The position numbers were made by a program, and so were the translations under genes. Below are positions 41,720-55,773 of a stretch of DNA of 64,000 nt, in pieces. Each line of letters starts with the position of its first letter. Positions within the stretch are counted from its first letter, which is position 1. Source of the DNA: Eledone cirrhosa. Taxonomy: Eukaryota. The notes under the pieces were generated by a model. It did not search any database and had not been told where the DNA came from. It saw only the letters and a program-made list of their open reading frames with translations. The DNA is taken from positions 39,246,001 to 39,310,000 of the forward strand of contig OZ024747.1 of the NCBI GenBank assembly GCA_964016885.1. The letters are read 5' to 3'.

Positions 41720-41759
41720 GCACCTACGTACGTTTCGCCCAGTTGGGCTTCTCAAGGGC
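41720..41759 (-). ncRNA. Minimal hammerhead with U3:A8 core (family F)
   Basis: gccc TTGAGAA gccc aact gggc GAA ACGTACGT A ggtgc. Stem III is palindromic and AATAAA follows. Confidence 0.8.
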
Positions 41760-43425
41760 ATAAATAATCACAAGTGTTCCTTATATTGCTCGGAATGAGT
41801 TTTTGAACGCGCATGTGCAGAAACAGTCATTTCTCCCAAGCGATAAAAATTCACGGTCGAATGGTGTAAGGGAGATAACTGCGAATGTCCGGAATAAATT
41901 GTTCGAGTCGATTAGAATATTAGAATATTGATGTTATTCAATCCGGAGCTTTGTAGTTATCCAAGAGGTGTTTCCAGGCGTGTGGACAACGTGAGAAAAG
42001 TTCATATTTTGGATTTGGGCAATTGCTATAGCGTAATCTCCTTAGAATATTGATCCTTTCTTCAATACGCAGTCCACAAGAAGGATTACCCCTTGCGTAT
42101 GGCTTGGACTTAGTGATAGCTTTCCATTGAACGGAATAGTCTACAACTGAGTCTTTGACAGACCATACGAAGTCGACAACACTGCTTACAGCCACTTGGA
42201 ACGTAACGCCATAACCTCTAAACATAAGAAGGATAACCCCACGGCTTATCAATACAGAAGCCAAAGACCTTGCTGCCGCCGTTAAGGTAGATAAGAAACT
42301 ACAATGCTTAGCTAAGGGGGAGGCGTTTCAGACCCTGAAGGATCACAAGGTAGACTTTGCTTCTAATCCCACGTGTAGACTAATAAACCCAGCACGCACG
42401 CAAATGGTGCTAGTCAGTAAGGTTATACCTAAGAACATAGTTAAGACCATTAGGACTCAGTCTAACCTGTCCCAGTGGGAGAACAGCGACTCCATCTTTA
42501 GGTGGTTCAACTCCTTCAATTCTAAAAAAATCGAAGTTCACGCATTTCGACATTGTGAATGTTTACCGGTCGATCTCAGTGACCCTGTTGAACAAATCGT
42601 TGGACTTTGCTACCACTTACACTACCATCCATGATTTTGACAGGGAGGTCATCGCACACTGCCGGAAAACCCACCTCTTCAACAACGGAATAGCCTGGAC
42701 CAAAAAGGCAACAACTTCAGAACTATCCGACGTCTCCACGGGATCGTTTGACAGTGCTGACGTATGCGACTTGGGTGGCTTATTTATTTTAGATATATTA
42801 CGTGCTAGATTCCGGTACTTCCCTACGGGAATATACCACGACAATGGTTTGATCCTATCGAGCCATAAAAGTGGTCACGACCTAGACCAATTTTAAAAAG
42901 ATTTAATTTCTACTTTTACTGAGTTAGGATTTAGGATAACGGTAGCTACCAACCTCTCTAGCATAGATTTCTTAGACATTAATTTATTCCTTCACACACA
43001 TATCTTCAGACCCTTCCATAAATTAAACGAAAAACTTAATTACATACACAAGAACTCATGCCACCCTCCTACAGTTTTTAGAAACTTCGTAAATAATATC
43101 AGTACTAGAATCTATAACCTCTCCTCTAATAAAGCAATCATTGACACGGCGGCACCTAACTACAACACGGCGTTAGCTAACAGCCGCTTCTCGCAATTAA
43201 TTACTTACTCCCCCGCTAACACCAACAGCAATAAGAAAAGAAATCGTACCAATAGTGAAAATATGTGGTTCTCTCCCTCCTTCTCACTCAACGTTAAGAC
43301 TGATGTTTTTAGCCCTCTTAGAGAGATACTTTCCCTTAGCTCACAAATACCGCTCCATCTTTGACAGACACAGGATAAAACTAGCGTACTCATGCGCTAA
43401 GAATATGAAGACCCACTTCACCAAT

Positions 43426-43521
43426 AGCCCTAAGAGCGGCACCCGACTAGGATACTCTTGCCGAAATTCTAATTTAGTCCAGAAATAGCCGTCGAAACGG
43501 CTTGAACTCTGCCGTCGGGCT
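43426..43521 (+). ncRNA. Damaged family C-related hammerhead
   Basis: Stem I is agccc/gggct (covaried versus acccc/ggggt), followed by gccgtc GAAA cggc...gccg TC. The 5' core is reduced to taaga. Confidence 0.55.
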
Positions 43522-43635
43522 TAAACATTTTCCTATTTCCCACTCTACTACACTAAGTATTGAGTACTCTGCTGCGTTATGGTCCGTCTGGTTCCTTACC
43601 ACACCTTCTTCGTTATATATATTTATATATATATA

Positions 43636-44504
43636 TGAGCTATGTCAGAAAAGTTCCAGGACTGATGTCACAAAAGATTTATTTCAAACCCAACTTCACA
43701 CTAAGAGTTTTCTCCTTCAAAGTAATTCCCTGGAGTCTAATGCGCTTTTCCATCCTTTTCGGCCACGCTTGCTTGCACTCCTGGAAGGATTCTTCCGGGA
43801 TTCTCCGCAGTTCCCTCGTCACGGCCTTTTTGATGTCGTCCACGTCTTCAAAACGGATCCCCTCCGGGTCGTACTCGAAGATCCATGACTCATCACCGGT
43901 GATGACTGTCCCTAACAAGTCTGGTTCGGTATCATGACGCTCGAGGATGTCCTGGCACACTTGCAGATATCGACCCTTCTGGTCATCGTTCAGTAGTTTT
44001 GGCACCCTCATCGCGCAGACTTTCCGCATGTCCAAATCTTCAGTGAGATTCTTCTAGACGCTGTCCCGATTCATGCCATCAGTCGAACAGTCAGCCGACG
44101 ATCGCTACGTACCATCTGCATGACACGCTCAACGTTGACATCAGTCCTCGTTGTTGAGGGCCTTCCGCTCCTGGGGTCATCTTGCACCACTCAAAACACG
44201 TGAGCGTGACATCGTCTCATCTCCATACACTTGCTGCAGCAATCTCAGTGCTTCTGACGGAGTTTTCCCCAACCGGACCAGAAATTCAAGTTTGTTCGTT
44301 GCTCTGTGCTCATTGCTTGACGACCTGAAACCGACGGTATGTAAATAAAATTATGAAGAAAAAAGTTTGATCGCGGCAGAGAGCTAAGATTACAGTTACA
44401 TACTCCAGGGGGATTACTTTGAAGGAGAAAACACTTAGTATGAAGTTTGGGTTTGAAATAAATCTTTTGTGACATCAGTCCTGGAACTTTTCTGACACAC
44501 CTCG
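43636..44504 (-). mobile_element. Internally deleted mariner DNA transposon
   Basis: ~100-bp TIRs (gtcagaaaagttccaggactgatgtcacaaaag...) with TA at both ends. Transposase remnants: EQRTN, RSGRPST, VPKLL, VITGDESWIFEYDPE fused to GIRFEDVDDIK. Confidence 0.93.
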
Positions 44505-44539
44505 TATATAGTTATGTAATAAACAACATAATATAATTA

Positions 44540-44602
44540 TTTCATTTACCAGTGGTTTCTTGAAGACAGATACGTATGCCTGTCTTCATTCATCAGAAGA
44601 AA
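44540..44602 (-). ncRNA. Type I hammerhead (family H)
   Basis: tttctt CTGATGA a tgaagacag gcatacgtat ctgtcttca a GAAA cc act gg TA aatgaaa. Stem II is a perfect 9 bp. Confidence 0.8.
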
Positions 44603-53216: not shown

Positions 53217-53334
53217 TATATATATATATATATATATATATAACGAAGTAAATGTGGTAAGGAACCAGGTGGACCATAACGCACCAAAGTACTCAATACT
53301 TGAGGTAGTAGAGTGGGTAATGGGAACCAGTAAG

Positions 53335-53428
53335 ACCCCGACAGCTGAGCTCAAGCCGTTTCGACGGCTAATTCTGGACTAAATGAACATTTATCCTGGT
53401 ATTTAAATAGCCGATCTTCTCAAGGGGT
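53335..53428 (-). ncRNA. Type I hammerhead with U3:A8 core (family C)
   Basis: Reverse complement of 55680-55773. Confidence 0.8.
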
Positions 53429-54544
53429 AATTCCATATATGGTCAAAGTGATTGTCCAAAATTAGTAGTAATTCTGTGGTTGAAAATTAGTAGGGGAGAT
53501 GGTGGCTAAACCTGCCAGTAGGAGAAAGAGGGGAGGGGTGGAGTAGACCCAATCAAGCGTTGGTAGTGCCAGCTACAGCTGGGCATGAGGTCAAAGAAGA
53601 TACAGGGGAGGGGGAGGGGGAGGAAGTCGGAACGGTAGGTAGAACAATGGGGGGTAGAAATATATAGGAAAGAAAAAATACTGAAGGTGAAGAAAAGCAA
53701 ATAAGTGTAAAGAAAAAAGTAAAGTAAATTAAATTCTACGACCTAGGTCTCTAGCTATTGTTAGGCCAGAATAAATAAATAAAGAAAGAAAGAAAGAAGT
53801 AAAGAAAGAAATAAAGAAATAACGAAATAAGTAAAAGAACTAGGTGGGACGGATTAGGCAAGGACACTTTTAAGAGGTATAAGTACGTAAATGATACGGT
53901 GACGGGTCAACAAAAGGGGCCAAACTACTAAAGAGACTACCACGAAATAAACAATAAAGGTTTCCATCCCGGGCACAATGCCAGCAACCACCCAGTGCAG
54001 CAAAGTGAACTTGTACGAGATAATAATTCTGAGTCCCGAGAAAAATATATACTAATGCTAACTCTAAAAGATCTAAAACAAGCTACATGAAAGTTCGTAC
54101 GAAGTAAAGGTAGAATACGGAAAAATAAATTCAGAATCCACCCCGCCCAAAAGAAAAGCGAAGAAAGAAATACTGAAACGAAAAAATAAGGCATAAGTGC
54201 CACTAAGAAATATAGAGGGCACAGAGAATAGTGGGAGCGGTCGGAAAAAGGGGACAAGTATCCGGGGTCTAAACCAACTGCTATAAAGGGCGGAGTCCGC
54301 CAAATCTATCATAGACTAGGGGAGGCGGTGGGGGTACTAAGGCTACAAGGGGCCAAAGGGCAGCCTCGGGTGGGCGAGAAAAGACGCCGACAAAGGAGAA
54401 GAGCTGGGGTAGAAGGACTAAGGAGAGAGGGGGGAAGGAAATAAAGGAAGCGATAAAAGAATACAAAGAAGATCTTACGTCTCCCTTGGCAAGCAGGGGT
54501 TACCCATTGCAAAATCGGCAAGTGGGGTGTGATAGCCCTAGTCT

Positions 54545-55260
54545 ACCCCCCCCCCCGGGTCATTATGGGGTTTGAGGGCGAGGTAAGTCCTACGCAATCT
54601 ATGTTTACATGCAGTAACCAGTTCATCTTTCTTGTTTAGGAGTTGGTCCGTCGAAAACAGCATTTGTAAAGTTTCCCCCGAGTATAAATTGCACGGACGG
54701 CGTCCTCCCGTGTAAGAATTGGCTCTGGACAGTAATCTCCAAGTGAGATCATAGGTGATGTTGTTGTCCTTGAGGTCCCATATGCGGCCCGAAAGTGTAG
54801 TGGCGTGACGCCGGGCCGGGTTTCAGAAGGTATGTCTATGTTGGTATAGCTGGGTCTTGAAGTCACATGCGGTAAGTCCTATATAGGCTTTGTTGGAGGT
54901 ATCCGTCCTCACGTTGCACTGGTAGATCACATTACGGTCTCTGCATCTATTGTCGAGTGGGCAAATAGATATATCCGGGCAGTTACACCTCCTGGTCGGT
55001 TCTCCACTGCTATTTAGGTTATTTCTGCCATCGGGGTTGAGTTTTTTGTTGTTAGAGGAGACGATGTTTTGTGCGAAGTTTGGTGTAGTGCTGTAAGAGA
55101 GTTTGATGGTATTTTTGTTAATTATGTTGTGGTAGCGGTGTTGTAATGGGAAGTGTTTTTCAATGAGCCAAAAGAATAGTTTCCCGATGGGAGTTGTCAC
55201 CTCTGCGTTGTGGGGAGGATTGAACCATGTTACATTGCGTGAGCGGCGGTGTCTCCTGCT
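54545..55260 (-). pseudogene. Naiad-type GIY-YIG endonuclease, one in-frame TGA
   Basis: ORF 54823-55200 continues in frame after TGA: NPARRHATTLSGRIWDLK...CNLY...LLNKKDELVTACKHR. Confidence 0.85.
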
Positions 55261-55679
55261 GGTTCCGCTAATTTACTTATTTCGTTATTTCTTTATTTCT
55301 TTCTTTACTTCTTTCTTTCTTTATTTATTTATTTATTCTGGCCTAACAATAGCTAGAGACCTAGGTCGTAGAATTTAATTTACTTTACTTTTTTCTTTAC
55401 ACTTATTTGCTTTTCTTCACCTTCAGTATTTTTTCTTTCCTATATATTTCTACCCCCCATTGTTCTACCTACCGTTCCGACTTCCTCCCCCTCCCCCTCC
55501 CCTGTATCTTCTTTGACCTCATGCCCAGCTGTAGCTGGCACTACCAACGCTTGATTGGGTCTACTCCACCCCCTCCCCTCTTTCTCCTACTGGCAGGTTT
55601 AGCCACCATCTCCCCTACTAATTTGCAACCACAGAATTACTACTAATTTTGGACAATCACTTTGACCATATATGGAATT

Positions 55680-55773
55680 ACCCCTTGAGAAGATCGGCTA
55701 TTTAAATACCAGGATAAATTTTCATTTAGTCCAGAATTAGCCGTCGAAACGGCTTGAGCTCAGCTGTCGGGGT
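55680..55773 (+). ncRNA. Type I hammerhead with U3:A8 core (family C); predicted cleavage after GUC at 55768
   Basis: acccc TTGAGAA gatcggcta...tagccgtc GAAA cggct tgagctc agctg TC ggggt. All three stems pair. Confidence 0.82.

Follow-up and report, generated by a model that had tools for sequence, protein, structure and literature searches.

Why does the same two-base exchange recur in the catalytic cores of several hammerhead motifs within a short stretch of one genome? The stretch in question, called the window below, comprises 64,000 nucleotides of Eledone cirrhosa (contig OZ024747.1, positions 39,246,001 to 39,310,000), a genome of 3.0 Gb that is rich in (TA)n. Four families of Penelope-like elements (PLEs), which we call C, D, E and F, carry in their 3' ends a hammerhead or hammerhead-like motif in which pair 3-8 is U-A in place of C-G. 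A first-pass annotation had seen in this the product of convergent selection, possibly for a slower ribozyme. We find that the U-A pair is near-fixed in each family; it likely had three compensatory origins, and cleavage is predicted to be kept in C and F, and perhaps in D. We give this reading a probability of about two in three. The exchange is best read as a neutral compensatory swap, kept by a moderate selection on the 3-8 pair that some sub-lineages escape.

U3:A8 motifs and their genomic copies

The motifs on which the analysis rests are as follows.

55680-55773 (+): family C type I hammerhead, U3:A8; core TTGAGAA 55685-55691, stem I ACCCC/GGGGT, long stem II, GAAA 55746-55749, loop of stem III palindromic; cut predicted after C 55768; 274 nt 5' of the start of the open reading frame (ORF)
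53335-53428 (-): second family C hammerhead; core TTGAGAA 53423-53417, predicted cut after 53340
41720-41759 (-): family F minimal hammerhead, U3:A8; core TTGAGAA 41755-41749, GAAA 41736-41733, stem II GCCC/GGGC, palindromic stem III ACGTACGT, H17 at 41725, stem I bulged
48870-48911 (+): family D minimal hammerhead, U3:A8; core TTGATAA 48877-48883, GAAA 48898-48901, stem III ACCGGT, H17 at 48907, stem I weak, A-U
52914-52949 (+): family E hammerhead-like motif; U3:A8 core TTGAAAA 52917-52923, GCAA (A13C) 52937-52940
49439-49474 (-): second family E motif; core TTGAAAA 49471-49465, GCAA, stem I broken
9421-9516 (+): C-lineage hammerhead with C3·A8 mismatch; CTGAGAA at 9426
8674-8769 (-): inverted partner of the preceding, C3·A8 mismatch; CTGAGAA at 8764

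Once its coordinates are read as motif edges, the first-pass annotation had the core words and places right for F, C, D and E. A type I core (N3UGANN8A...GAAA...UH, with a Watson-Crick 3-8 pair) is present in C, F and D. Family E is not the plain core swap it had been taken for: the intact GAAA (G12-A13-A14-A15.1) is replaced by GCAA in 99 of 100 genome matches listed. Stems I to III are clear in C, while stem I is bulged in F and weak in D and E, where the motif at 52914-52949 has three A-U pairs only. The minimum-energy fold of the family C motif at 55680-55773 is the three-way hammerhead junction, with an energy not below that of shuffles (z -0.22); cofolding paired the palindromic stem III of F, D and E between two molecules.

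The families were then tallied over the genome by exact patterns in which positions 3 and 8 were left free, the counts being lower bounds and the first 100 matches listed for each coming from the start of contig 1. Young family C gave at least 2,182 matches, F at least 1,568, D at least 972 and E at least 3,811. Among the matches listed, U3:A8 was found in 100/100, 97/100, 97/100 and 100/100, respectively, and C3:G8 in none; reversed-pattern controls had 0 matches genome-wide. This tally, which had been named beforehand as a check, gives U3:A8 and not C3:G8 as the state of the families, and the view of U3:A8 as a compensated, family-level state was therefore sound. Both changes are transitions, as would be expected if CpG-type or random mutations had hit copies of a C3:G8 consensus after insertion, but near-fixation of U3:A8 without C3:G8 among the matches listed excludes such copy-by-copy decay. 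With the reversed controls empty and about one paired match in shuffles, decay or chance look-alikes together are exceedingly improbable as an explanation.

With positions 3 and 8 unconstrained, a structural descriptor matched at 43 places in 864 kb (29 C:G, 12 U:A and 2 other), where shuffles had about 2; one deliberately chosen tandem array of family C contributed 6 of the 12 U:A matches. A looser descriptor matched 84 times (61 C:G, 7 U:A, 16 other) in 1.46 Mb from which the window and that array had been removed, compared to about 12 matches when the entire 1.46 Mb was shuffled, 0.3 of them C:G and 0.7 U:A. This excess argues that the motifs are real and that positions 3 and 8 covary. The looser matches contained 14 multi-copy clusters, of which 9 were C3:G8 and 5 were U3:A8, three of the latter having been enriched through targeted searches. 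None of the 14 was G3:C8 or A3:U8, although the descriptor permitted both. In an Rfam scan of the window, hammerheads were absent from the 150 of 198 rows listed, which contained microsatellite-driven microRNA (miRNA) matches only. Standard CUGANGA searches miss U3:A8 families, so PLE hammerheads have been under-counted. Two antisense candidates, CTGACAA...GAAA at 53033(-) and 20313(-), were discarded because they lie on the strand opposite to the family E sense.

Host elements and number of origins

All four U3:A8 motifs lie on the PLE sense strand, in the 3' end after the endonuclease. The insertions concerned are the following.

53237-56924 (mixed strands): family C, Hydra-clade PLE; inverted copy 53237-55272(-) and forward copy from 55273
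54550-55272 (-) and 55959-56924: C-terminal GIY-YIG region in the inverted copy, and N-terminal part of the reverse transcriptase (RT) in the forward copy of family C
41504-41803 (-): family F, short 3'-end fragment, Hydra clade
46950-49134 (mixed strands): family D, Neptune-like PLE; 46950-48096(-) and inverted 3' end 48148-49134(+)
49273-53067 (mixed strands): family E, sister of D; Neptune-like PLE, arms inverted

The family C motif lies about 1,110 nt 3' of the endonuclease and 274 nt 5' of the ORF, and the family F motif about 300 nt 3' of the endonuclease and 345 nt 5' of the ORF. The family D motif follows the ORF piece by about 300 nt, and the family E motifs are found 1,100-1,250 nt 3' of the endonuclease region (1,229 nt for 49439-49474); the assignment of a hammerhead to a protein by distance alone is noisy. 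The second family C motif, at 53335-53428, belongs to the 3' end of the 5'-truncated copy, which is inverted (inverted repeats I4 and I5). Elsewhere in the genome, family C has intact ORFs of 719 aa in tandem units of about 3.54 kb, with copies 99% identical, and other copies of family F have 44% protein identity to C. The piece of family D at 46950-48096(-) contains a broken RT thumb, a CX2-5CxxC linker and GIY-YIG (PF01541). The PLE layout of Cervera and De la Pena (2014), with a sense motif in the terminal repeat between the endonuclease and the next ORF, is found here as well.

Pfam recognized GIY-YIG in 2 of 17 ORFs; as none of the Hydra proteins was matched, assignment to clades relied on motifs. 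In Naiads the endonuclease is N-terminal and canonical hammerheads are missing. Families C and F had been called Naiad-type, but the N-terminal GIY-YIG 5' of the RT that marks Naiads is absent from the intact C ORF and from the F tandem, where the RT comes first and the endonuclease last. Both have Hydra marks instead, namely RWR and SDKT in C, RWK and SDKT in F (locus L048), and a CxCX5C linker before the C-terminal endonuclease (CNCPDRSIC in C, CNCRDRGRC in F). The Hydra diagnostics in the available text of Craig et al. 2021 (PMC8557442) include the RWK motif, DKT, the CxCX5C linker and GIY-YIG at the C terminus. By these motifs, C and F are assigned to the Hydra clade. As far as published descriptions go, they resemble Hydra PLEs such as Hydra-1_Obim (Octopus bimaculoides) in the RWK-like motif, DKT, CxCX5C, C-terminal GIY-YIG, (TA)n targets and 3' hammerhead. 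They differ in having U3:A8 where the published Hydra motifs have C3:G8, and family C also in its 54-nt stem II region and its unit of about 3.54 kb, compared to published Hydra units mostly under 3 kb. For D and E, the sequence CGRPNCGIC ahead of a C-terminal GIY-YIG (CX2-5CxxC) agrees with Neptune PLEs; no full-length RT was recovered. The earlier label 'Neptune-like' thus stands as a likeness, the linker being common to Nematis and so not decisive for the clade.

Protein trees included sequences of this genome only, with no named Hydra or Neptune references. The Hydra tree had 22 rows, all but one of them families with 300 or more aligned residues, 13 shorter families being omitted. C and F were on opposite sides of a starred branch, and F was placed among C3:G8 families; four copies of the group nearest to it contain a C3:G8 motif whose stem II is long. 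When six C3:G8 families were labelled, two changes were needed, and monophyly of C and F was rejected (approximately unbiased test, p-AU 0.004, LG+G4). D, E and a third family, whose intact U3:A8 motif UUGAAAA...GAAA has a four-pair stem I, formed one clade (100/99, 12 rows) separate from the Hydra clade. Since D and E belong to one clade and C and F stand apart on the Hydra tree, the four families likely represent three origins of U3:A8. The recurrence seen by the first-pass annotation therefore holds in so far as the pair arose more than once, the four families counting as three because D and E are sisters. The stems of these two had been called unrelated, but both have ACCGGT as stem III and GCAT/ATGC as stem II. 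A fifth U3:A8 family (cl9) may be a fourth origin. It has two-sided changes at three of the four stem II pairs in 8 copies, a count taken from stem II rows alone since RNAalifold paired the core with stem III and not as a hammerhead.

Concerning the direction of change, file S2 of Craig et al. 2021 (available part of PMC8557442) gives a hammerhead for 25 Hydra families, each of them with CUGA-N-GA, that is, C3:G8, in a list built with a CUGANGA descriptor; this points to a polarity from C3:G8 to U3:A8.

Two observations may be added on these families. The fifth U3:A8 family occurs in tandem units of about 318 bp, like non-LTR (long terminal repeat) retrozymes (L213:7198-7808, L076, L035 and L257). 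Hydra families H5, H11 and H17 (L245, L170, L189, L230, L214) have C3:G8 cores with a stem II region of about 85 nt, common to copies and exceeding standard descriptors.

The U3:A8 pair in PLE hammerheads is already known, as a variant since 2011 and in PLEs since 2014. Against the C3-G8 pair stated in the available text of PMC3884650, natural covariation to U3/A8, noted there as active in vitro, was described for several hammerheads by Perreault et al. 2011 (PMC3088659); the pair is the same as here, and the examples are not tied to PLEs in the available text. The Cercyon PLEs of Schistosoma mansoni have U3-A8 minimal hammerheads with about 1,300 matches, and dimerisation was proposed for PLE minimal hammerheads (Cervera and De la Pena 2014, PMC4209133, available part). 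They share with our families the swap and its site in PLE terminal repeats, and the core words UUGAUAA and UUGAAAA of the accessible supplement are those of D and E. They differ from them, as far as described there, in stem III, which here is small and palindromic (D, E, F) or full (C), and in that the swap here affects Hydra-clade and Neptune-like elements, with three origins on the trees. No literature report was found of multiple U3:A8 origins in one genome, nor of amplified C3·A8 or A13C PLE subfamilies, either of which Lunse 2017, on PLE hammerhead variants, may cover. The available texts of a 2026 retrozyme preprint, PMC10085705, PMC2920678, PMC6765202 and PMC11014351 yielded nothing further on U3:A8.

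Mismatched and broken cores that multiplied

The first-pass annotation held that positions 3 and 8 had changed together. This is true of the young C, F, D and E tallies and fails in the wider C lineage, whose pattern has at least 5,693 genome matches: 1,507 are not U3 (C3 in 97 of 100 of these among the matches listed) and 72 are not A8, 7 of them being C3:G8. In all, 4,128 matches are U3:A8 and about 1,450 are C3·A8 mismatches; A occupies position 8 in 5,621 of the 5,693, and all four bases occur at position 7. The mismatched copies include the CTGAGAA motifs of the window, 9426(+) and 8764(-), as well as loci L261-L270, L279 and L280. When position 3 was masked, a short DNA tree of modest support placed them mainly in two C subfamilies, with at least 3 to 4 changes needed on starred branches. 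These subfamilies are older (94% pairwise identity, compared to 97.5% in the U3:A8 middle and young groups), and their copies mostly retain GAAA (20/21) and GUC (18/21). In contigs of run X1, which may be the source of the assembly, T>C at 55685 accounts for roughly one quarter of the depth, and position 8 has no variant listed. In family E, A13C is fixed (52917(+), 49471(-) and 20189(+)), and long low-complexity 3' insertions are common to copies.

Fast hammerhead cutting requires A13 and the 3-8 pair. The further core changes of the amplified sub-lineages are likely damaging to cleavage, and cutting in the C3·A8 subfamilies and in family E is probably slow or nil. For a PLE hammerhead of a lizard, the available text of PMC11167929 reports that single C3G and G8C mutants abolish cutting, and that in vitro PLE insertion is no lower with catalytic mutants. 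The latter result fits a weak selection.

The course of events would be a change of C3 to U followed by G8 to A, two transitions by way of a U·G wobble. Starting from C3:G8, transitions lead to no Watson-Crick pair other than U3:A8, so its recurrence is expected; mutation bias together with selection for a pair would suffice for repeated origin. Family C would fold and act as a monomer, cutting after 55768, while F, D and E would need dimers formed through their palindromic stem III. Selection would hold a 3-8 pair in the long term and yet be weak enough for C3·A8 and A13C lineages to multiply, which argues that it is lax and not finely tuned.

Several points weigh against this reading. Folding energies are not below those of shuffles (z from -0.2 to -1.8), only C adopts the hammerhead as its minimum-energy fold, and stem I is weak in D and E. 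About 26% of the wider C-lineage matches are unpaired at 3-8; together with family E lacking A13, these copies show that amplification is not strictly dependent on pairing, and the motif could be partly vestigial. In addition, 14 of the 22 Hydra rows, among them the three closest to C, have no 3-8 label, which limits any dating of the C swap, and the descriptor behind the published Hydra list was incapable of showing U3:A8.

If the motifs were catalytically vestigial altogether, U3 and A8 would have arisen as master copies drifted towards A+T, with the fold kept, if at all, for structural purposes such as protein binding or dimers. The roughly 1,450 C3·A8 matches in two subfamilies, seen also at about 25% depth in the run X1 contigs, the A13C of family E at no fewer than 3,811 matches, the weak stem I of D and E and the 36% G+C of the window would agree with this. 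However, most multi-copy families retain a Watson-Crick 3-8 pair, the stems of C and F are G+C-rich, the fifth U3:A8 family has compensatory stem changes and the relative of D and E keeps an intact U3:A8 motif with its four-pair stem I. We consider a wholly vestigial motif doubtful.

Positive selection for slower cutting supposes that the RT must traverse the 3' hammerhead, U3:A8, C3·A8 and A13C then being a graded attenuation. C-lineage copies extend about 20 or 100 nt beyond the predicted cut and none of 83 starts there, which implies templates that were uncut or re-ligated; the three origins and the youth and integrity of family C (99% identical copies, full ORFs) would also fit. C3:G8 families, however, likewise lack copies starting at the cut site, C3:G8 is the majority (61 compared to 7 matches with the looser descriptor), recurrence is predicted by transition bias alone, and the youngest C subfamily carries the motif that is best paired rather than most broken. 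Copies starting at the cut would indicate cutting; this run-off check, 0/83 in the C lineage, showed no peak in seven C3:G8 clusters or in one other U3:A8 cluster, and being flat in both it cannot compare rates. No positive evidence was found for the convergent selection initially proposed, nor any evidence separating it from a neutral swap, and we regard it as unlikely. A wider version of the idea seems questionable too: PLE hammerheads would be repeatedly selected to cut less, as in the U3:A8, C3·A8 and A13C series, with the RT reading through a 3' ribozyme, and the dead-core subfamilies of a thousand copies would show that the fold has a non-catalytic use, be it inversion or RT pausing at stem II, pairing into dimers or trans cutting by sister subfamilies.

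The amplification of elements with broken cores is a more useful lead than U3:A8 itself. The genome offers a natural matched series in one background, with U3:A8, C3·A8 and rare C3:G8 in the C lineage, intact and A13C motifs in the D/E clade, and copy numbers known. This makes it testable whether a PLE hammerhead must cut for the element to spread.

The C lineage also has a hotspot of 5' truncation. Of 83 3' ends, 42 start 31-45 nt 5' of the cut site, within stem II's 3' arm (the equivalent of window 55723-55737); such copies occur throughout the sampled blocks and, in the window, at 19734 and 43478. These copies are often short fold-back insertions, and in 60 of 74 copies with the 3' half the first half of the core is unrecognisable. 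On meeting the folded stem II, the RT may halt or change strand.

Other elements in the window

Canonical C3:G8 cores of other PLE families are found at 10908(+), 37740(+), 40033(+), 57650(-) and 18383(+). At 43640-44510, an element flanked by inverted repeats was inserted after the Hydra copy 42215-43500; its frame 43679-44053(-), without a Pfam match, is presumably a broken mariner-like transposase, judging from its motifs. Near-perfect hairpins around (TA)n at 53088-53204 and 49219-49270, which gave an Rfam miRNA match under the gathering score, are likely a small inverted-repeat element. Finally, broken PLE copies of another clade, with a CX2-5CxxC linker, lie at 164-3563 and 30987-33523, and are possibly Nematis-like.

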